Source: Myxococcales bacterium
GTDB lineage: Bacteria; Myxococcota_A; Polyangia; Fen-1088
Reading direction: 5' to 3'
Length of the DNA: 64,000 bases
NCBI GenBank assembly: GCA_003142855.1
Contig: PLNW01000092.1
Coordinates: 11,826-75,825, forward strand
Each line of letters opens with the position of its first letter. Within the stretch, counting starts at the first letter, position 1. Positions 1 to 10,573 of this stretch are shown here, piece after piece. Under the pieces are notes generated by a model. The model searched no databases. It was given only the letters and a program-made list of their open reading frames with translations, and was not told where the DNA came from. The translations under genes were made by a program, and so were the position numbers.

Positions 1-578
1 ACCTGGGGCCGGCCGTCGTTGCGGCGGTTGAGCGCCAGCGTGGTGTCGACCTTGGCGGGCTCGACCTTGGTAGGTGCCGCCGGGAAGTTGAAGTCCATGC
101 GATCGAAGCCGCCGCCCGATGCCCCGTGCCGGTATTCCAGCCCCGAGGTGGGCATGTGGCCGGTGGCCGCCATGTGCCAGGTGGAAAGAATCAGATCCGC
201 GGTCCAGCGCGGATCGCCCATGGCGTCCACGCTGGGGTTGCGCATCAGCGTGAGCGCCTTCTGCTTGCACTTGGCCACGCAGAAGTGGTCGGTCTTGGCG
301 CAGTCGGGACCGATGCACAGGTGGTCGAGCGGTCGCAGCGTGAAGGTGTAGCCCTCGGGCTTCACGTGCACGCCCTCCGGGCACAGCTTGGCGCACTCGC
401 CGCAGGCCACGCAGTCCGCCGAGCGGTTGATCTTGTACTTGCCCAGGGCATTGTGGTAGCGGTCGGGCGCGGGTCGCACCTGACGGGTCACCGCGAACTC
501 CGACTCGGCATCCGCAGCAGCGGACTGGGCCGGAACCGCCGCGGGCTCGGCTTTGGAGTTAGCGAGAGAGAAGGTCAC
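1..578 (-). CDS. 4Fe-4S ferredoxin-domain / glutamate-synthase-domain-2-like protein; N-terminal part only, gene runs off the window start
   Basis: Absent from the ORF track because it leaves the window. My reverse-strand translation from GTG 578 (TTG 581 is an alternative) reads VTFSLANSKAEPAAV...RYHNALGKYKINRSADCVACGECAKLCPEGVHV...CIGPDCAKTDHFCVAKCKQKAL...LEYRHGASGGGFDRMDF. It contains a CxxCxxCxxxCP ferredoxin motif. The start overlaps the stop of the upstream gene at 559. Confidence 0.6.
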   Translation of the reverse strand, partial: MTFSLANSKAEPAAVPAQSAAADAESEFAVTRQVRPAPDRYHNALGKYKINRSADCVACGECAKLCPEGVHVKPEGYTFTLRPLDHLCIGPDCAKTDHFCVAKCKQKALTLMRNPSVDAMGDPRWTADLILSTWHMAATGHMPTSGLEYRHGASGGGFDRMDFNFPAAPTKVEPAKVDTTLALNRRNDGRPQ

Positions 579-1956
579 CAAATGCCTCCCGTTCGACGTC
601 TTCTTTGAAAATCGCGCGCCCCACCTCGCCGCGCAGGCGCCGCACTTCGCGGATGCCCATGGCGCCCAACACCTCGAGAAGCTGCGAATGCCAGGCCGCC
701 ATGAGATTCACCATGCGTTGGACCACATAGGCGCTCTCCAGCTTCGGGGCCGCGGCCGGACAATGCTCCTGGTGGTCTGCGCTCTGCACCCCGCGACACA
801 CGCGGCAACCCAGCGACACCAGCAGAGCGGTGTCCACGGCCACCAGATCGGCGCCGCAGATGATGGCCTTGGCCATGTGCTCGGGCAAAGCGATGCCGCC
901 GGCGACGATCAACGTGATCTCGTCGCGCACGCCGGCCTTGACCAGGCGGCCGTGGATCTCGCGCATGACATCTTTGATGTGTCGTGGGCTTTCGACTCCC
1001 ACTTCGCACCCATGCAAGTCACCGCTCAGGTGGAAGACCTTCACGCCCGCCTGGCTGAGCTGCAGGATGCGCTCGGCCGCCAGCCCTTGCAGAGGCAGGC
1101 GAACCGCGACGACCAGCTTGGGATTGGCCGTCTTGGCCTTGGCAACCAGGGCCGACACTTCCGGGCCATCCACGAACTCGACCATCCGCACCTGCGGCAA
1201 CAGCGTCTGCACGCTGCCCAGTCCCTCGCTGCCAACCAACGGAACCAAGAACGGCATTTCCGCGGCCGGCGCTCCTGCCACCTCGGCCACGCGAGCCAGT
1301 GCCAGGGTCTTCAACTTCGCCGCTGTGGTCAGCCGGGCGCGCGCAAACTCCTGGCCGCCCACTTGCCAGGCGGGAATATCCAGGATAAGCGGGAGAGGCA
1401 GGTCGATCAGGTCCGCCGCCTCGCCCAGCAACTTGCCGTCATTAGAGAATGAGAGCCGCATGGGCTTGGGCCCGATGTCCACGCTGGTGCTGATGTATTC
1501 GCGACCGTGGATGCCGTCGCGGGTGGGGCGAACGATCTCGGACATGTCGGTCCAGATGGAATCGAAGCCAAAGCCATGGAAGCGGCCGCGGTAACCAGCC
1601 CCGGAAACCGGAACCCGGCCCGTGTCAGACTGGTTCCAGGTGGTGGCCATGATGTCGGGCTTCCAGTAGTCGTCGCCCATGGCCAGGAACTCGGGATTGA
1701 GCGAGATGGCCAGAATCCCCTTGGTGCAGCCCTGCACGCACGACAGGCAGGCGCGACATTCGTAGAGCGGCACAATCGAGGTCTGTGGGTCGCGGTTGTA
1801 GGCCGCTTCCTTGCGGTAGGTGTCGAACACGCAGCGGGGCTTCACGCAGTTGCTGCAGCGGGCGCAATCCTCGCGCCAGTCCACGCTTCCGTACTTGCCG
1901 ACGTGGCGAAAGCGTCCCGGCGTGGGCACTGGCTTGATATGGTACTTCTCAGACAT
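559..1956 (-). CDS. Glutamate-synthase-related FMN/Fe-S protein (GltB domain-2-like)
   Basis: 465-aa ORF. It has N-terminal Cys clusters (CARCSNCVKPRC, CRACLSCVQGC). The C-terminal segment ...LIVAGGIALPEHMAKAIICGADLVAVDTALL... resembles the FMN barrel of the glutamate synthase domain-2 family. It sits 8 nt downstream of the MetF-like gene. Confidence 0.7.
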   Translation of the reverse strand: MSEKYHIKPVPTPGRFRHVGKYGSVDWREDCARCSNCVKPRCVFDTYRKEAAYNRDPQTSIVPLYECRACLSCVQGCTKGILAISLNPEFLAMGDDYWKPDIMATTWNQSDTGRVPVSGAGYRGRFHGFGFDSIWTDMSEIVRPTRDGIHGREYISTSVDIGPKPMRLSFSNDGKLLGEAADLIDLPLPLILDIPAWQVGGQEFARARLTTAAKLKTLALARVAEVAGAPAAEMPFLVPLVGSEGLGSVQTLLPQVRMVEFVDGPEVSALVAKAKTANPKLVVAVRLPLQGLAAERILQLSQAGVKVFHLSGDLHGCEVGVESPRHIKDVMREIHGRLVKAGVRDEITLIVAGGIALPEHMAKAIICGADLVAVDTALLVSLGCRVCRGVQSADHQEHCPAAAPKLESAYVVQRMVNLMAAWHSQLLEVLGAMGIREVRRLRGEVGRAIFKEDVEREAFGDLLSR

Positions 1957-1964
1957 CGTGTGCT

Positions 1965-2849
1965 CTAGGCCAGGCGGGCTTCTTTGATCACCGCTGCGGC
2001 CAGCGGTTCACAGCCCGCGCTGTGGATGTGGATGCCGCGTACCCCGGCCATGGTCTTTGCCTTGCCTGCCACCTCGGCCGCGATGGCCACACCGGCCTGG
2101 GTCGCGTCGCCGCTGCGCAGGCGTTTGATGATGTCGTCGCTGATCGCGCTGCCCGGCCCGCTGCGCAGCTCTTCGGCTTGCGCCACGCTGGTCAGAGGCA
2201 GCACGCTGGCGATGATGGCGGCTTGCTTGTCCAGGCCCGCGGCTCGGATCGCCTTGAGCCATTCTTCAAAACCAGCCAAGTCGAAAATCGGATCGGTCAG
2301 CAGGATCTTCGCGCCCGCCGCGATCTTCTTTCTTGTTTGGGCCATGGCCAATTCCATGGGCCGGAGGTACGGATGAGCGGCTGCGGCCACTGTCAGCGCG
2401 GGCGCTGCCGGAAGCTTGGTTCCGCTGAAATCCAGCCCGGCGCTCGCCATCTTGGCCAGGGCCTGGGTCAACTGGACAGCATCCATGTCGTAGGCGCCCG
2501 CCGCTTGTGGAAATCCGCCCAGTGCCTGGTGCGCGCCCGACATGCAGAAAAAGGTCTTCACGCCGAGAGCAAAGGCGCCAAGCACGTCGGATTCCAGCGC
2601 CACGCGGTTGCGATCGCGCGTGCACAGGCTCAGCACCGGCTCGATCTTCTCCGCGGCCAGCAACGCCGCACAGGCCAAGGCCGAGCCGTGCGCCTGCTCG
2701 GCGTGGTCGCCCACGATCACGCCGTCGAGCGACGGCGGGAAGCACGCCGCCAGCTTCTTCACCGCCGCCGCATCCGTTCCATGCGGAGGAATACAGGCGG
2801 CGGTCACCACCGGTTTTCCGCTGCCCAGTTTCTCGGACAACTTACTCAT
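1965..2849 (-). CDS. Methylenetetrahydrofolate reductase-like protein (MetF family)
   Basis: Start ATG 2849 (MSKLSEKLGSGKPVV...) was chosen inside the 1965..3017 ORF. The product is 294 aa and carries the MTHFR-type motif LSLCTRDRNRVALESDVLGA. It overlaps the upstream stop by 8 nt (2842-2849). The upstream extension to 3017 would overlap the MvhD-like gene and is rejected. Confidence 0.75.
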   Translation of the reverse strand: MSKLSEKLGSGKPVVTAACIPPHGTDAAAVKKLAACFPPSLDGVIVGDHAEQAHGSALACAALLAAEKIEPVLSLCTRDRNRVALESDVLGAFALGVKTFFCMSGAHQALGGFPQAAGAYDMDAVQLTQALAKMASAGLDFSGTKLPAAPALTVAAAAHPYLRPMELAMAQTRKKIAAGAKILLTDPIFDLAGFEEWLKAIRAAGLDKQAAIIASVLPLTSVAQAEELRSGPGSAISDDIIKRLRSGDATQAGVAIAAEVAGKAKTMAGVRGIHIHSAGCEPLAAAVIKEARLA

Positions 2850-3459
2850 CGCCATCATCTTCATCTTCCAGTTGGTACGGGACATCCTCTGACAGGCCTG
2901 TGCTGTGCAACGGGTTCGGGGCCAGGGCAGACACACGCGCGACGAATTGATCGCGCACCGCCGCCACCTTCTGCCCCAGCGCCGCATCCACGCTGGCTGG
3001 GGCCGACGCTCCAGCACCCAGGGCCATGTCCTGCACCGCCGAGCCGGGCAGGTGGAACAACATCAATCGGTCTTTGCCGAGGCCAATCTCTGCCAGAAGC
3101 GAAGAAACCGCCTCAATTCGCCGACGGCAACGCTTGTTGCCTTCGTGATGGTGGCAGTTGCCTTCTTCACAGCACACAACCGCGACGGCGTGCGCACCGC
3201 CTTCAAAGGTCTTGAGAAGGTGCTCCGGCTGCAGCCGGCCCGCACAGGGAACCACCACCTCTTGCACCGGAAACGGCCAGCCGAAGTTCGGCGTCTCGGG
3301 CCGGAAGCGCTTGCCTGACGTGGGCAGGCGGCCGGCGCGCACGCTGTTCTCGCACACGAAAACTACGATCATAGAAACAGCGGCCCCGGCCGGACGCGCG
3401 TCCGCTTGCACTGTCGCCGTTTCAGCCACGAATTGAACCTTTCCGTGCCCTTCGGTCAT
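2842..3459 (-). CDS. MvhD/FlpD-like hydrogenase iron-sulfur (delta) subunit family protein
   Basis: 205-aa ORF with ...MIVVFVCENSV...VVPCAGRLQPEHLLKTFEGGAHAVAVVCCEEGNCHHHEGNKRCRRRIE..., a pattern typical of MvhD/FlpD. It has an acidic C-terminus. The start is uncertain: M1 at 3459 or the internal Met before IVVFVC. Confidence 0.7.
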   Translation of the reverse strand: MTEGHGKVQFVAETATVQADARPAGAAVSMIVVFVCENSVRAGRLPTSGKRFRPETPNFGWPFPVQEVVVPCAGRLQPEHLLKTFEGGAHAVAVVCCEEGNCHHHEGNKRCRRRIEAVSSLLAEIGLGKDRLMLFHLPGSAVQDMALGAGASAPASVDAALGQKVAAVRDQFVARVSALAPNPLHSTGLSEDVPYQLEDEDDGDE

Positions 3460-5548: not shown

Positions 5549-6412
5549 CTAGTTCTTAGTCGGCATGGGCGCCATGTAGAGCGGCATCGGCCCCAGGCCG
5601 GCGTCCTGCTTCGGCTGCGGCGCTGAGTACCTCATAGGAAGCCCCGCGTCCGGCATCGTCGCCATGTAGAGAGCCACTGCGCCGCCGAGGTCTTTCTGCC
5701 CGGCGTCCGGCATCACCGCCATGTACTTCGTGGTAAGCCCGGCATCGGGGCCTGGGCTTCCCGCATCCGGCGAGATCGCCATGTACAGAGGATAAATCCC
5801 CGTCATTCCGCCCGCCCCTGTGGCTCCGCCCCCGCCCGACATGCCCGCCATGCCCATGTAGGCGGTAATCCCGCCGCCCCCAACAGTGCCAGGCACCGTT
5901 GCTCCCCCCTTCCCGGTCACTCCGCCTGTTCCCGTCGCTCCCCCCGCGAGCGTCATGCCCGCCATGCCCATATAGACGGTAATCCCGCCCCCTCCAACAG
6001 AGCCAGGCACCGTTGTTCCCCCCTTCCCGGTCACTCCGCCAGTCCCCGTCGCTCCCCCCGCGAACGTCATGCCCGCCATGCCCATGTATAGAGGAACCGC
6101 TGTCATTCCGCCTGCCCCTGTCGCTCCGCCTGGCCCCGTGGCTCCGCCTGCCCCTGTGGTTCCGCCCGCACCGGTCTCTCCGCCGGAGCCCGTCATGCCC
6201 GCCATGGCCATGTACACGGCAATCGCGCCGCCCCCAGCAGAGCCGGCCTGGGCGGATGAAGTATCCGCAGAGCCATCCTGACTGGCGTTCAGCGAGGTAT
6301 CGCCGCAGCCCACCAGCGCGAGCCCGATCCCCATCGAGGCAGGCACCACCACATAACGAACCGTATCCCTGAGGAAAATATGAATGCGCTCTCGGATGTC
6401 TTTCTCTCTCAT
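5549..6412 (-). CDS. Gly/Met-rich repeat lipoprotein with 8 Tyr-Met motifs; putative rSAM substrate (cassette 1)
   Basis: 287 aa. An AAGGAG SD lies 7 nt upstream of ATG 6412. The N-terminus is MREKDIRERIHIFLRDTVRYVVVPASMGIGLALVGC, with lipobox L-V-G-C. The body carries VYMAMAGM, LYMGMAGM, VYMGMAGM, AYMGMAGM, LYMAISPD, KYMAVMPD, LYMATMPD and LYMAPMP. There is no Cys after the lipobox. Confidence 0.75.
   Translation of the reverse strand: MREKDIRERIHIFLRDTVRYVVVPASMGIGLALVGCGDTSLNASQDGSADTSSAQAGSAGGGAIAVYMAMAGMTGSGGETGAGGTTGAGGATGPGGATGAGGMTAVPLYMGMAGMTFAGGATGTGGVTGKGGTTVPGSVGGGGITVYMGMAGMTLAGGATGTGGVTGKGGATVPGTVGGGGITAYMGMAGMSGGGGATGAGGMTGIYPLYMAISPDAGSPGPDAGLTTKYMAVMPDAGQKDLGGAVALYMATMPDAGLPMRYSAPQPKQDAGLGPMPLYMAPMPTKN
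5840..6090. repeat. 114-bp in-frame tandem repeat (about 2.2 units) inside the cassette-1 lipoprotein gene
   Basis: CATGCCCGCCATGCCCATRTA recurs at 5840, 5954 and 6068, a period of 114 nt (38 aa: YMGMAGMT[LF]AGGATGTGGVTGKGG[AT]TVPG[ST]VGGGGIT). A diverged copy lies at 6194. Confidence 0.8.
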
Positions 6413-6958
6413 GATCGGCTCCTTGCGCTACCGAGTGACTACTTGCGACGTTCCGCTCTCCCGAGAACAGCAAGTGTCATGCCACGGACTTTCAGCCTGC
6501 ACGGGACAGGCAAGTCCTCATAATAGCACGTGCGCCGAGGCCTTCCCCGGTGCTTTCTATGAAGCTCGTGGCAGCGTCGTCTCAGATTTCTGAGGCGATG
6601 CCCGGATGTGAATCACCCGCCAACGCGATCCGTCGCGCTCCGGTCTATGGCTACCTAGCCGCCGGAGCCGCCGCTGGGTACTCCCCGGCCAGCATCCCGT
6701 AGATGCGCGAGCTGCGGAAATGGTTGCGCAGCCACACGTATCACGGATGAGAAGCCTCTGGGTCCGGATCGGATCGATGCGCGGCATGTCTTCTCCAGTT
6801 GGCGGTGCGAAAGGCATTCGATCCCCGACCGCGTCGGGGTGTCAAACAACGCCGTCCCGCGCCCAGTGAGCCAGAAGTGAACGCCCCTGCTACTGGAAGG
6901 GTTGAGCGGCGCGAGGGCGCAGCGTGAACCGGCGAGCTTTGACCTCGGAGGAGTCACC

Positions 6959-8572
6959 ATGAAACGATACTTCGCAGCACAACGGTTTCGCACGGGGTTG
7001 CAGAACAAGCTGGGCCTGAGCGGGCTCGCTTCGCTTCTGTTGGTCGCGGTCCTGGCTGGGTGCTCTTCCTCGAAGGCGACGGGCGCTTCAGGCGGCAGCG
7101 GGGCCGGTACAAGCGGCACCACCGGGGCCAGCAGCAGTGGGGGACAGACCACCATCGGCGGTGTCACGAGTATTGCGAGCGCTGCGGGAGGATCGAGCGG
7201 CCAGGGTGGAACGACTGCCGCGATGGGAGGCACCACGGCTGTTGGGGGCACCACAGTCGGTGGGTCGACTACGGCAAGTGGCGGCACGAACGGCGGCGGT
7301 GCAACTGGTGGCGGCGCAACGGCCGTCAACAGCGCCACGGCGGGTAGCAGCGCAACGGCCGGCAGCAGCGCAACTGCCGGCAGCAGCGCGACCGCCGGCA
7401 GTGGCGCAATGGAAAGTGGCGGCACTGCGAGTGGCGGGCGCACGACGACCAGGAGCGGCGGGCTTGTGGCCGGTGGCACTACGTCCGGCGGAGGGACCAC
7501 GAGCTCAGGTGGTACGTCCAGCAACGGTGGAACGGCAGGCACAAGCCGCCCCGACGCTGGCGCAGACGCGGCTGCGGGTGTCGCTTCGCCCGATGCGCGC
7601 GGTGGCGGGGGCGCCGGAGCCGGAGGAACGGCCGGAACAGGGGGAACCGTGGCCGGCGGCACAGGCGTAGCCAGTTTCCACTGCGTGAACTGGGCCGACA
7701 ACCGGGACAACTTCGTCGACGGACATCTCCTCATGTCCGGGATCACTTCAGACACGGACACCTATGACGGCGTCACGACCAAGGCCAACATCGTCGTGGG
7801 CGCCTTCGTCGATCTGTTGCAGGCCAATTCCTTCCGCATGCCCATCAACGAGCCGACCGCTCTCGACCCCTGGTGGAATTCGTACAAGGCCGCCATCGAC
7901 GTCGGCATCGCCAAGGGAATGAAAGTGATCATTGGCTTCTGGGCGAAGGACAAGAACATTGGCAAGCCAGTCGACAACACCCGCTGGTACGCCATGTGGA
8001 AGGTCGTGATTGATGCCTACGTGAGCAATCCGCTCGTGTTCTACGATATCCACAACGAGCCGCACGGATTCACGCCCGCGCAGTGGATCACTCAGGTCAA
8101 TGGCTGGCTGGCGCAGTTCCCCAACGTGCCCAGGCAACAGATCATCGTGGCAGGCAGCGGCTGGGACGACAACGTCGCAAATGTGGCCAGTTCCTGGCCC
8201 GATCTGATGATGGAGATTCACAACTACGCGAACAACGGCCCGACGACCCAGGCAGGGTGGAAATCCAACCTGCTCAACCGCCTGGGCAACGCTGTCAGCC
8301 GCACCATTGTCGGCGAGTGGGCGGGCCAGTTGAACGAGGACTTCACCACCGGGATCGATGGCAACGCAGACAAGTCCTTTATCGTCGGCACGGCCAACAC
8401 AATCTATGACAACAAGATGGGAAGCTGCTGGTGGGCAGGCGCGTTCGCCCCGAGTGGAGGTACTTCGGGCTCCAGCCTGCTGGTTCAGAAGGGGACCGGA
8501 GACACCATGACCTTCACCGCCCAGGGTCCAGCCGCCCTCACCTACATTCAGCATTCGTGGGGCCTCAATTGA
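6959..8572 (+). CDS. Lipoprotein glycoside hydrolase family 5 (cellulase-like) with a long G/S/T/A-rich linker
   Basis: ATG 6959 is preceded by GGAGGA. The signal and lipobox read LLLVAVLAGCSSS, followed by a low-complexity linker of about 230 aa. The catalytic domain has YDIHNEPHG (acid/base NEP) and IVGEWAG (nucleophile). Confidence 0.8.
   Translation: MKRYFAAQRFRTGLQNKLGLSGLASLLLVAVLAGCSSSKATGASGGSGAGTSGTTGASSSGGQTTIGGVTSIASAAGGSSGQGGTTAAMGGTTAVGGTTVGGSTTASGGTNGGGATGGGATAVNSATAGSSATAGSSATAGSSATAGSGAMESGGTASGGRTTTRSGGLVAGGTTSGGGTTSSGGTSSNGGTAGTSRPDAGADAAAGVASPDARGGGGAGAGGTAGTGGTVAGGTGVASFHCVNWADNRDNFVDGHLLMSGITSDTDTYDGVTTKANIVVGAFVDLLQANSFRMPINEPTALDPWWNSYKAAIDVGIAKGMKVIIGFWAKDKNIGKPVDNTRWYAMWKVVIDAYVSNPLVFYDIHNEPHGFTPAQWITQVNGWLAQFPNVPRQQIIVAGSGWDDNVANVASSWPDLMMEIHNYANNGPTTQAGWKSNLLNRLGNAVSRTIVGEWAGQLNEDFTTGIDGNADKSFIVGTANTIYDNKMGSCWWAGAFAPSGGTSGSSLLVQKGTGDTMTFTAQGPAALTYIQHSWGLN
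7328..7399. repeat. 18-bp x4 in-frame tandem repeat encoding (S/N)SATAG in the GH5 linker
   Basis: aacagcgccacggcgggt / agcagcgcaacggccggc / agcagcgcaactgccggc / agcagcgcgaccgccggc. Confidence 0.8.
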
Positions 8573-8647: not shown

Positions 8648-9406
8648 ATGAAGGAACACGAGATCCGGCAGCGCATCGAGGGCTTCCTCAAGCGAACTGC
8701 GCGCGAGTTAGTGGTGCCGGCATCGATGGGTCTGGGCCTGGCGCTGGTCGGGTGCGACCATACTGGGATCAAGGTCGCGCGGGACGCAGCGGCTGAAACG
8801 GCCCAGTCCGTCGCGCCCGACGCGGCAGACGCGATGCTGACGAGGGATAGCGCTGCCAATGTCCCGGACGTGGCCAACCCGCGGGACTTCGGCATCAACG
8901 ATGACAGGCCCGCCCTCGATGCGTTCAAAGCAGACCTGCCTAGGCTGATCATTCCGTACGGGGTCCGCATAGAGCCGGACGCGAGCGTGGACGCGGCTGC
9001 CCCGAACGCGGATGCCCCGGACGCGGATGCAGGCGCCGCGGACGCGGAGGTTCGCGCCGTGGACTCTGGTCGCGACGCAGGCAAAGCTGACCTGCCTGCG
9101 ATCTTGCCGCCCTACATGCCGCCCTACATGCCTGCGCCCCTGCCCGATGCTGCGCAGGATCTTTCGGCAGTCATTGTCCCGTACATGGTGCCACCGCCCT
9201 ACATGGCGCCGGTCTTCGGCCCGCCTCCGCTGCCCCCGGATCCACCGCCACAGGCGCCGGAGCCGCCACCACCGCCGCCGCCACCACCGCCCTACCTGGC
9301 GCCGGTCTTCGATGCTGGCCAGGACTTGCCACGACCCATTCCCGGATACGTCGTCCCCCCACTGGCCCCATCACCGACGGTTCCGCCAGCCAAGGCACCC
9401 AAGTAG
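8648..9406 (+). CDS. Pro/Asp/Ala-rich repeat lipoprotein with P-Y-M motifs; putative rSAM substrate (cassette 2)
   Basis: 252 aa. The N-terminus MKEHEIRQRIEGFLKRTARELVVPASMGLGLALVGC is homologous to cassette 1 (24 of 37 identical by eye). The C-terminal part has PPYMPPYMPAP, VPYMVPPPYMAPV, PPYLAPV, PGYVVPP and a run of 10 Pro. There is no Cys after the lipobox. Confidence 0.75.
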   Translation: MKEHEIRQRIEGFLKRTARELVVPASMGLGLALVGCDHTGIKVARDAAAETAQSVAPDAADAMLTRDSAANVPDVANPRDFGINDDRPALDAFKADLPRLIIPYGVRIEPDASVDAAAPNADAPDADAGAADAEVRAVDSGRDAGKADLPAILPPYMPPYMPAPLPDAAQDLSAVIVPYMVPPPYMAPVFGPPPLPPDPPPQAPEPPPPPPPPPPYLAPVFDAGQDLPRPIPGYVVPPLAPSPTVPPAKAPK

Positions 9407-9439
9407 GCCGCAAGCCGTGGCAACGGCCAGGAGCCATCG

Positions 9440-10573
9440 GTGCTGGAAGTTCTGAGGCGGGCCGGCATCGCCCCGCGCGCCTGCGCGTGGGAGCTGACCT
9501 TGGGGTGCAACCTGCGCTGCCGACACTGTGGCTCGGCGGCAGGTCCGCGCCGCTCCGACGAGCTGACCCTGGAAGAATGCCTGCGCGTGGCCGACGAGCT
9601 GGGCGCCCTGGGATGCCAGCGCGCCACGCTCACCGGGGGCGAGCCCACGCTCTACCCGGACTGGGACAAGGTGGGCCGGCGCCTGGCCCAGCACATTGCC
9701 GAGGTCAGCTTGATCTCCAACGGTTGGGCATGGACCGCCCGCCATGCCCAGCAGGCCGCGCAGGCCGGTTTGCGTGGTGTCGCTTTCAGCCTCGACGGGC
9801 TGGAAAAGGAGCATGACTGCTTCCGCGCCGAGGGTTCGTTCCGGCGCGTGGTCGAGGCGGTGAAGCACACCCTGGCCGCCGGCCTGCCGGTGGGCATCAA
9901 CACGACGATTCACCGCCTCAACACCCGCCAGCTTCCCCAGTTGCGCCAATTTCTCATCGACATCGGCGTGCGCACCTGGCAATTGCAGTTCGCCATCGCC
10001 ACGGGCTACATGGCCGAAAATCGCGACCTGGTGGCGCCGCCCGAGGAGCGGCTGTGGCTGATTCCGCAGATCGCGGAAATGTGCCGTGCCAGCGACAACC
10101 GCATCAAAGTCTACGCCAGCGACCACATCGGCTACTTCGGCAAGCCCGAGCGCGACCTGCGCACCGGTGACACCTCCATGCCGTTCTGGCTGGGCTGCCG
10201 CGCCGGCTGCCATGTCATCGGCATCGAGAGCAACGGCAACGTGAAGGGCTGCCTGTCGCTGCCTTCGCAGGTGCAGGGCGAGAGCCGCTTCGTCGAGGGC
10301 AACCTGCGCCAGAGCAATCTGCGCGAGATCTGGAACCGCAAGGGCGCCTTCGCCTACAACCGCGAATTCCGTATCGAGCAACTGGGAGGCTTCTGCGCCG
10401 TATGCCGCTTCCGCGACATCTGTCGGGGCGGCTGCACCTGGACCATGTACGCCGAATCACCCACGCTGGCCGCGGGTAATCCGCACTGTTTCTACCACCA
10501 GGCCGTCAAGCACGGCCGCAGCGACCTGCTCGACGAAGAGCCCACGGCAGAGGAAAAGGCCTTCTTCGGCTAG
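9440..10573 (+). CDS. Radical SAM / SPASM-domain enzyme (cassette 2), paralog of 4365..5531
   Basis: 377 aa. GTG 9440 has an AGGAG SD 6 nt upstream. Motifs are ELTLGCNLRCRHCGS, LTGGEPTLYP and GCRAGCHVIGIESNGNVKGC...GGFCAVCRFRDICRGGC. It is roughly 55-65% identical to the cassette-1 enzyme by eye across the full length. Confidence 0.9.
   Translation: MLEVLRRAGIAPRACAWELTLGCNLRCRHCGSAAGPRRSDELTLEECLRVADELGALGCQRATLTGGEPTLYPDWDKVGRRLAQHIAEVSLISNGWAWTARHAQQAAQAGLRGVAFSLDGLEKEHDCFRAEGSFRRVVEAVKHTLAAGLPVGINTTIHRLNTRQLPQLRQFLIDIGVRTWQLQFAIATGYMAENRDLVAPPEERLWLIPQIAEMCRASDNRIKVYASDHIGYFGKPERDLRTGDTSMPFWLGCRAGCHVIGIESNGNVKGCLSLPSQVQGESRFVEGNLRQSNLREIWNRKGAFAYNREFRIEQLGGFCAVCRFRDICRGGCTWTMYAESPTLAAGNPHCFYHQAVKHGRSDLLDEEPTAEEKAFFG

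Follow-up and report, generated by a model that had tools for sequence, protein, structure and literature searches.

What does a radical S-adenosylmethionine (rSAM) enzyme do to a repetitive, putatively lipid-anchored protein in which most tyrosines are followed by methionine? The question is raised by two adjacent genes in a 64,000-nucleotide stretch of Myxococcales bacterium contig PLNW01000092.1 (the window): a 287-residue precursor with a lipoprotein-like signal peptide, taken from the open reading frame (ORF) list (6412 to 5549 with its stop codon, minus strand), and a 388-residue rSAM/SPASM maturase recognized by Pfam and NCBIfam (5531 to 4365, minus strand), which starts 17 nt past the precursor stop and together with it is denoted cassette 1. 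We find that the pair belongs to an unannotated Myxococcota family, from uncultured myxobacteria of soil, in which gene order, leader and tyrosine motif are retained, and that the precursor is very probably the substrate of the enzyme, with the Tyr motifs as its sites. Our best model overall, tentative and close to an even case, is that of a splicease-like binary system in which the enzyme works on a lipoprotein precursor and the signal peptide of this precursor is also the recognition leader.

Tyr-Met sites and tandem repeats of the precursor

The ATG of the precursor gene at 6412 is preceded at a distance of 6 nt by a Shine-Dalgarno sequence read from the DNA (AAGGAG, 6419 to 6424, minus strand). 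The N-terminus of the protein, MREKDIRERIHIFLRDTVRYVVVPASMGIGLALVGC, passes from a charged stretch through a hydrophobic stretch to a lipobox-like LVGC ending in Cys36, and is followed by a low-complexity region that holds ten of the 11 Tyr. Eight of these ten are followed by Met, one by Pro and one by Ser, and the eight Tyr-Met (YM) contexts are those already listed in a first-pass annotation of this DNA (VYMAMAGM, LYMGMAGM, VYMGMAGM, AYMGMAGM, LYMAISPD, KYMAVMPD, LYMATMPD and LYMAPMP). With 23 Met among 251 mature residues, 0.92 YM pairs are expected where eight are observed (binomial p = 1.9e-7), and none of 200,000 shuffles reached that count; YM still accounts for seven of nine Tyr once one duplicated unit is taken out. 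The high Met content remarked on earlier is likewise borne out by the composition (Met 8.7%, Gly 26%).

The mature Tyr codons span 5576 to 6214 on the minus strand (Y67, 6214-6212; Y109, 6088-6086; Y147, 5974-5972; Y185, 5860-5858; Y207, 5794-5792; Y210, 5785-5783; Y230, 5725-5723; Y249, 5668-5666; Y262, 5629-5627; Y279, 5578-5576), and all except Y207 match Y-x-[A/G]. Y262 (RYSAPQP), although not a YM site, also matches the family motif Y-x-A-P, so that nine of the ten mature Tyr are motif sites. The precursor has no match in Pfam or, at E ≤ 0.01, in NCBIfam. An AlphaFold2 model of the precursor alone (mean predicted local distance difference test score, pLDDT, 37) predicts the leader helix only in part; it is compatible with disorder and uninformative beyond that.

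Part of the low-complexity region consists of tandem repeats. Tandem Repeats Finder reports a 114-bp repeat of 2.6 copies with 87% matches (5797 to 6088, minus strand), in which two complete 38-residue units (6088 to 5975 and 5974 to 5861) are 92.1% identical in DNA (9/114 positions differ) and 89.5% identical in protein. The third 114-nt "copy" shares only its first part with them (56-59% identity over 114 nt). The repeat described in the first-pass annotation is therefore real, but it consists of two full units plus a partial third and points to a recent duplication, not to the near-perfect triplet that had been proposed. A second, 18-bp repeat of 4.3 copies found by the same program (6107 to 6184, minus strand) encodes GGxTGx spacer hexapeptides. 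The ortholog comparison that had been suggested as a check on an evolving site number bears the idea out: in loci whose rSAM enzymes are 87-96% identical, the number of Tyr sites ranges from 7 to 11 and repeat content differs. Site number evolves through gain and loss of repeats, with expansion and contraction both ongoing.

Linkage of precursor and enzyme across Myxococcota

The cassette-1 enzyme has 916 database homologs at E ≤ 1e-20, and the few organism-labelled matches among those listed come from metagenome-assembled genomes (MAGs) of Polyangia or Deltaproteobacteria. The identical enzyme is found on 14 metagenome contigs, and the identical 287-residue precursor gene is called on all three of these contigs that were examined. 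A scan of one genome per species yielded 79 loci in 60 assemblies, nearly all of them MAGs labelled Myxococcota, Polyangia or "delta proteobacterium"; 12 of the 60 assemblies hold two or three of the loci. A precursor with the same leader lies directly upstream of the enzyme on the same strand in 51 of the 75 loci that have enough upstream DNA, all of Myxococcota or unclassified-MAG origin (median gap 18 nt), and several of the remaining loci contain Tyr-motif proteins of different build, or split genes. The adjacency holds among enzymes down to ~45% identity. The first-pass view of the precursor as a multi-site substrate candidate of the adjacent enzyme is strengthened by this linkage to upstream precursors of the same build.

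No other gene (protease, transporter or second enzyme) recurs in the neighbourhoods of the related loci. A tetratricopeptide repeat (TPR) protein is present in 18 of the 79 loci, as a separate downstream gene in eight cassette-1 orthologs (L001-L007 and L012) and fused to the rSAM C-terminus in ten loci of one clade, and the C-terminal fusion is also seen in many database homologs of the cassette-1 enzyme. In the window the TPR protein (172 residues, Pfam TPR families; 4368 to 3850, minus strand) starts within the end of the rSAM gene, overlapping its stop by 4 nt. With TPR patchy and no further conserved neighbour, the core system is binary, consisting of precursor and rSAM. We rejected TPR as a core component on the count of loci and on its absence from a second cassette in the window, and consider from its distribution that it may be a clade-specific accessory partner.

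Individual loci vary in precursor number and architecture. Four precursor genes stand in tandem upstream of the rSAM gene at one locus (L032), and another (L044, 1-277) encodes a precursor with five perfect 19-residue repeats, GVMPPYMAPDPGPEAEEDP. At L060 (1592-2843) and L061 (1977-3756), proteins of more than 400 residues have Y-[A/M/G]-[A/G]-P-F-E motifs that join Cys-rich DxDxDG modules.

The tyrosine motif of the family

We compiled 59 family precursors from matches to a hidden Markov model (HMM) of the leader and from hand-curated divergent leaders, and derived a logo from their 309 unique Tyr contexts. The position after Tyr (+1) is Met in 47% of contexts (background 4.3%), Gly in 18%, Ala in 8%, Ser in 6% and Leu in 5%; +2 is Ala in 56% and Gly in 9%; and Pro occupies +3 in 48% and +5 in 39%, giving the consensus [P/L/V]-Y-M-A-P-x-P-D-A-G. 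Position −1 is highly variable across the family. Across the aligned contexts, Tyr is the invariant residue of the sites, and no second residue is invariant.

The first-pass annotation had treated YM as the conserved unit and had named loss of the dipeptide beside a retained rSAM gene as evidence to the contrary. This is what part of the family displays: among 52 loci with at least three Tyr, 12 have no YM (with YG, YA or YL instead) and retain the rSAM gene, and only 22 have at least 60% YM. Precursors with YG only adjoin enzymes 75-77% identical to the cassette-1 rSAM, and such clades (DAYGVP, DAYGIP, VYGIGG) alternate with YM clades. Whole clades have Gly, Ala or Leu in place of Met at +1, so the functional unit is not YM, and we discarded it as an essential dipeptide. 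Most family precursors are not Met-rich outside the Y-M position. The spacers between motifs change freely through insertion, deletion and repeat turnover, and in composition they are Gly/Thr-rich in the window precursor and Pro/Asp-rich in most relatives.

A conserved leader with a lipobox

The leader of the window precursor (residues 1-36; 6305 to 6412, minus strand) consists of an amphipathic charged stretch (residues 2-20), a hydrophobic PASMGxGLA segment and the lipobox LVGC. Conserved columns are found in the charged part (E4 85%, R8 95%, R10 87%, F14 75%, L15 80%, R20 77%) as well as in the hydrophobic part and lipobox (P26 100%, G30 95%, G32 95%, L33 92%, Cys 100%), and the hydrophobic moment is 0.31-0.44 at 100 degrees. 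This conservation goes far past what Sec or signal peptidase II would need, and we propose that the leader may double as a signal peptidase II signal peptide and as the recognition or activation element of the rSAM enzyme. By pattern match, 55 of the 59 family precursors have a lipobox-like Cys. The leader HMM, which contains no Tyr information, detects this N-terminal element in 38 fetched loci and in the window, 39 sources in all.

Among 5.8 billion clustered proteins, a search with the leader recovered no more than six fragments (38-101 residues), none with a name or a Pfam domain, which suggests that most homologous precursors are missed or shortened by gene callers. In Myxococcus xanthus, Lys at +2 after the lipobox Cys marks lipoproteins retained in the inner membrane (PMC3222651). 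The corresponding residue of the window precursor is Gly and not Lys, a weak hint by analogy that the precursor might leave the inner membrane. In one Sandaracinaceae precursor (L034), Tyr-Gly stands straight after the lipobox Cys (AVSGCYGV), as it does in a Treponema lipoprotein of the TIGR04133 system (L084 2053-2442, LTSCYGMP); in both, the lipidated Cys would be the X of an X-Y-G site.

Relationship of the enzyme to tyramine spliceases and GDL maturases

The cassette-1 enzyme matches PF04055 with 82.9 bits (gathering threshold 29.5) and PF13186 with 31.7 bits (threshold 21.5). Its cluster motif CX3CX2C lies at C23, C27 and C30 (ACNLRCKHCGS), and seven SPASM Cys (C253, C271, C319, C322, C328, C332 and C347; C-x-G-x4-C ... 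C-x2-C-x5-C-x3-C ... C) are invariant across 12 homologs. We found no signal peptide and no N-terminal RiPP recognition element (RRE) domain, RiPP denoting a peptide that is made ribosomally and modified after translation; an N-terminal RRE would not fit ahead of CX3CX2C at residues 23-30.

We compared eight members, namely both window enzymes and six diverse relatives, with NCBIfam. All eight have full-length matches to TIGR04103 ("nif11-class peptide radical SAM maturase 3", 233-301 bits) and to TIGR03913 ("GDL motif peptide-associated radical SAM/SPASM maturase", 241-296 bits), with scores about twice those of the next family. TIGR04103 scores are 232.6 bits for cassette 1, 252.1 for cassette 2 and 259-301 for the six relatives, short of the equivalog cut-off of 725; TIGR03913 scores are 241.1 and 251.2 bits for the two cassettes, short of 591.75; and the third-best family, TIGR04133 (127-156 bits; 127.1 and 146.6 for the two cassettes), likewise remains below its cut-off of 425. 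The window enzyme shares with annotated TIGR04103 and TIGR03913 members the motifs FWxGCxAG...GIExxGxxKGCxSLP, [DN][DN]IGY[FY]G, WQxQ...GN and GN.R..SL..IW. We built a neighbour-joining tree with 100 bootstraps. It recovers the Myxococcota family as monophyletic (99%) and four splicease-type references as one clade (100%), and in 72% of replicates the family, these references and an Agathobacter enzyme together exclude TIGR04133 and TIGR04053.

Reference loci were drawn by tblastn from annotated plasmids. The Nostoc TIGR04103 locus encodes a Nif11 precursor ending in IALYGLPPELF and has a small ORF directly 3' of the enzyme gene, the A-X-Y layout of the plp cluster. The Azospirillum and Aureibacter loci contain tandem DUF1843 peptides beginning MLYGG, KPYGV, RPMYMATMTEA, LYAAG, MYAAS and PYGAG, and in those beside TIGR03913-type enzymes (L080 2043-2758; L082 2159-2872) the same aligned N-terminal Tyr is followed by Gly, Met or Ala, so that the sister family alternates at +1 in the same way as the Myxococcota family. 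An rSAM enzyme of the human gut bacterium Agathobacter rectalis, 37% identical to the window enzyme, has upstream of its gene an unannotated 35-residue ORF, MFNLEELSLEFVKISELKTSKNLFGPVMYGTGVRM (L083 2291-2398), that ends in GPVMYGTGVRM and has the look of an X-Y-G precursor that has escaped recognition.

Structure prediction was less discriminating. An AlphaFold2 model of the cassette-1 enzyme made with 12 homologs (pLDDT 61) matched generic RiPP rSAM folds in the PDB by Foldseek (SkfB, PqqE, SuiB and anSME), and the same folds came up when the PDB was searched by sequence. We know of no splicease structure for comparison.

Candidate chemistries at the Tyr sites

PlpX is the prototype tyramine splicease, from a SPASM subclass whose members accompany Nif11/NHLP precursors. 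Spliceases act at XYG with variable X, and multiplied sites and whole proteins are tolerated (PMC11414181, PMC5995677, PMC11626197, PMC10533398); in the binary systems, a leader helix of the precursor activates the enzyme (PMC11414181). As the closest characterised relatives of the window enzyme are PlpX-type spliceases, tyramine excision is the most likely chemistry, and we regard it as a possibility of somewhat less than even weight. It also accords with the family motif: with only Tyr invariant and position −1 variable, a reaction on Tyr and the backbone is a better fit than cross-linking with a fixed partner. The fuller proposal, that cassette 1 represents an unrecognised clade of tyramine spliceases which take X-Y-Met and X-Y-Ala besides X-Y-Gly on lipoprotein precursors, is on balance doubtful. 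Several findings weigh against the splicease-like model. The curated splicease and GDL cut-offs lie far above the scores of the enzyme (233 versus 725 and 241 versus 592 bits), identity to the splicease-type references is only 31-37%, and the Myxococcota family and these references are sisters in only 55% of bootstraps. All characterised splicease sites that we found in the literature are X-Y-G, and the window precursor has no Y-G. Our searches turned up no experiments on the action of TIGR03913 enzymes on DUF1843 peptides, which leaves tolerance of Y-M there to be read from co-occurrence only. Lipidation of Cys36 is predicted from a pattern match.

Cross-linking in place of excision, by which the enzyme would join Tyr to a neighbouring residue through a C-C or C-O bond, either in a three-residue cyclophane (Xye/Grr/Fxs) or in a PqqE-like manner, and would thereby form small rigid rings, is an unlikely but substantial alternative. 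Aromatic-X-X motifs in multi-repeat precursors are typical for cyclophane-forming rSAM/SPASM enzymes, and Y-M-A places an aromatic residue at position 1 and, in 56% of sites, a Cβ-bearing residue at position 3. No partner residue is invariant, however, and +2 is Gly, which has no Cβ, in 9% of family sites, including three of the eight YM sites of the window precursor (YMGMAGM), and on the latter ground a three-residue cyclophane at +2 was set aside. The closest solved structures are the cross-linking maturases SkfB, PqqE and SuiB, but fold-level matches of this sort are unspecific, and confidence in the model that gave them is low. By sequence, the neighbours of the enzyme are the splicease and GDL families, and no cyclophane synthase family is among the best 25 of its 63 NCBIfam matches.

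We consider it very unlikely that the enzyme modifies the precursor elsewhere or without change of mass, through epimerisation to D-residues or chemistry on the Met or Pro beside Tyr, with Tyr serving for recognition only. Met (+1), Ala (+2) and Pro (+3, +5) are indeed enriched next to Tyr, rSAM peptide epimerases exist, and EpeE is among the weaker structural matches; against this, Tyr alone is invariant while Met, Ala and Pro are each replaceable, and the enzyme is not near known epimerase families in NCBIfam. It is scarcely credible that the precursor is an ordinary unmodified low-complexity lipoprotein, a Met-rich Cu(I)-binding protein or tether (MxM/MxxM) beside an rSAM enzyme that acts elsewhere: its MGMAGM-type clusters resemble Cu(I)-binding Met motifs and a GH5-like neighbour has a similar Gly/Ser/Thr-rich stretch, but most family members share no Met richness apart from the Y-M position, the leader is over-conserved for a signal peptide, and adjacency is kept to ~45% enzyme identity while all but the leader and the Tyr motifs changes, a linkage too well conserved for a Cu-binding protein with an unrelated rSAM neighbour.

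Proposed pathway

In the splicease-like model, the cytoplasmic rSAM enzyme would first recognise the precursor N-terminus through its charged amphipathic helix and PASMGxGLA segment; in some clades the TPR protein, placed or fused at the position that PlpY holds in type I systems, may assist it. The enzyme would then work repeatedly on [P/L/V]-Y-[M/G/A/S]-[A/G]-x-[M/P]-P, at nine sites in the window precursor of which eight are Y-M, most likely by excision at X-Y-M/A/G (−135.07 Da per site). The same N-terminus would next serve as a lipoprotein signal peptide for Sec export, Lgt transfer of diacylglyceryl to Cys36 and cleavage by LspA (signal peptidase II), a route that would take the place of a leader protease and an exporter of its own. 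What results would be a disordered, lipid-anchored chain rich in Gly, Thr and Met, with its modified sites outside the cytoplasm.

Comparison with characterised and annotated systems

Spliceotide systems (PlpX/PcpX type I with PlpY; RhaX/RcsX/RasX binary type II; TIGR04103) have an rSAM/SPASM enzyme homologous over its full length, a substrate gene immediately upstream and multiple sites per substrate. Their tags (PLYGLPI, MYGVV) and the sites of the window precursor (PLYMAPMP, ALYMATMPD) or its relatives (DAYGVPD) have an invariant Tyr in a hydrophobic or Pro context in common. The Myxococcota family differs from the TIGR04103 spliceases in score (233-301 bits against a cut-off of 725), identity (31-40%) and placement in a separate clade (99% bootstrap). 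Its +1 residue is mostly Met and not Gly, with one PYG in the cassette-2 precursor and YG-only precursors in relatives; its leader is of neither the Nif11/NHLP nor the type II kind but a predicted lipoprotein signal peptide; its substrates are 90-300-residue putatively disordered lipoproteins with up to 11 sites; and in place of the PlpY-like small ORF of type I systems, which is lacking, some clades have the TPR protein. A 2022 survey (Scott et al., Chem), which also takes in 27 characterised spliceases, predicted 939 splicease systems mined by YG frequency (PMC10849128, PMC10533398). YG-type relatives of our family may already be in that survey, and the YM clade was probably not counted there.

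The GDL/DUF1843 (PF08898)/TIGR03913 system of Proteobacteria and Bacteroidota is comparable in having precursor genes in tandem upstream, a conserved Tyr with G, M or A after it (MLYGG, KPYGV, PMYMATM, LYAAG) and, in Azospirillum, an enzyme 36% identical to that of the window. Unlike the family precursors, DUF1843 peptides are ~60-residue helical peptides with one N-terminal Tyr, a Y-X10-GDL motif, no signal peptide and no repeats, and TIGR03913 enzymes have a C-terminal extension of ~100 residues that is absent from the window enzyme. In the TIGR04133 system of Treponema and Bacteroidota, a partner annotated as "radical SAM-associated putative lipoprotein" is encoded immediately upstream, like the family precursor; this partner is a folded 130-residue domain with a single YG and not a repeat protein, and the enzyme falls outside the splicease-like group in our tree.

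The lipoprotein route itself has a precedent in the DAG-RiPPs, hybrids of RiPP and lipoprotein that ChrH/DybH-type MNIO enzymes make with a lipoprotein signal peptide as RiPP leader (PNAS 2026, PMC13056109). In both cases the maturase is cytoplasmic and has no signal peptide, the precursor leader is a signal peptidase II signal peptide with lipobox (a pattern match here), and the cluster contains no protease or transporter gene, leaving leader removal, lipidation and export to the general lipoprotein pathway; DAG-RiPPs also occur in Myxococcota (PMC13056109). The differences are an MNIO enzyme versus an rSAM enzyme (PMC13056109 does not contain the terms radical SAM or rSAM), a single C-terminal CPxCGxG core versus multi-copy Tyr motifs, and lipidation that is experimental for DAG-RiPPs and predicted for our family.

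The first-pass annotation had drawn an analogy to the GrrM-type system, in which an rSAM/SPASM enzyme likewise stands beside a secreted, Gly-rich repetitive precursor with an aromatic residue per repeat (GRRM, triceptides). This analogy fails. The precursor lacks an NCBIfam match and the GRRM rSAM model is absent from the best 25 of 63 enzyme matches, the 25th of which scores 58.7 bits, so that it lies below 59 bits compared with 233-241 for the splicease and GDL families; in addition, most family precursors have Pro/Asp-rich spacers instead of Gly-rich ones.

Significance of the family

An rSAM/SPASM maturase with a multi-core precursor is known, as is a lipoprotein signal peptide used as RiPP leader; our literature searches found no description of the Myxococcota precursor/rSAM family. 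What is new is a separate enzyme clade that lacks annotation and stays under all curated cut-offs, a site dominated by Y-M, the TPR fusion, long disordered multi-site substrates and the first rSAM case of the lipoprotein route that we could find. Whatever the chemistry, the lipoprotein pathway would have been co-opted by a second enzyme class, radical SAM, in a RiPP-lipoprotein concept so far based on MNIO enzymes, and the data suggest that uncultured Myxococcota have a large family of modified proteins directed to the surface. They also point to a gap in public protein data, with six short leader fragments on one side and an intact 287-residue gene called on at least three metagenome contigs on the other.

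If the proposed splicease clade exists, its product would be a lipid-anchored disordered chain with up to about ten electrophilic α-ketoamide (β-amino acid) units outside the cytoplasm, which could trap proteases in a multivalent, covalent manner or form a reactive polymer of the matrix. The signal peptide would then be an enzyme-activating leader and the product the first rSAM RiPP-lipoprotein hybrid, made in uncultured Polyangia of peat and groundwater whose genomes hold several paralogous cassettes each. Splicing at these sites would widen the splicease rule from X-Y-G to X-Y-M/A, and mining by YG frequency, the route taken in the 2022 survey according to PMC10849128, would miss such systems. 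The compact enzymes of 355-390 residues could be used for installing β-amino acids and keto handles in proteins.

A second cassette and surrounding genes

Cassette 2 (8648 to 10573, plus strand) is placed divergently relative to cassette 1. It encodes a Pro-rich precursor of 252 residues (8648 to 9406, plus strand) with the same leader and lipobox, followed by a 377-residue rSAM/SPASM maturase (9440 to 10573, plus strand) that is 64% identical to the cassette-1 enzyme and has no TPR. Four of the seven Tyr of this precursor are in YM (p = 9.5e-6), the contexts being PYM in four cases and PYG, PYL and GYV in one each. Two related MAG contigs each contain one cassette-1-type and one cassette-2-type locus within ~20 kb (L002/L020 and L005/L021).

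Between the two cassettes of the window lies a gene for a GH5 (cellulase-family) protein (6902-8572, plus strand) in which a lipobox-like Cys is followed by a long Gly/Ser/Thr-rich stretch holding an 18-bp tandem repeat (7314-7409). The Gly-rich context of the precursor, in which the first-pass annotation had seen a resemblance to GrrM substrates, is thus not peculiar to the precursor.

A promoter scan at the locus found nothing, a tRNA scan returned no genes, and a terminator-like hairpin (3732 to 3716) is a consensus-level match only. Long ORFs that we consider spurious overlap the precursor gene in other frames or on the opposite strand (for example 5556-6473, minus; 6013-6372, plus; 6069-6281, plus). 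Directly downstream (3') of the TPR gene, genes with FlpD, MTHFR and Glu_synthase Pfam domains (559-3459, minus strand) look like a methylene-tetrahydrofolate reductase module with its electron-transfer partner, unrelated to the cassette.

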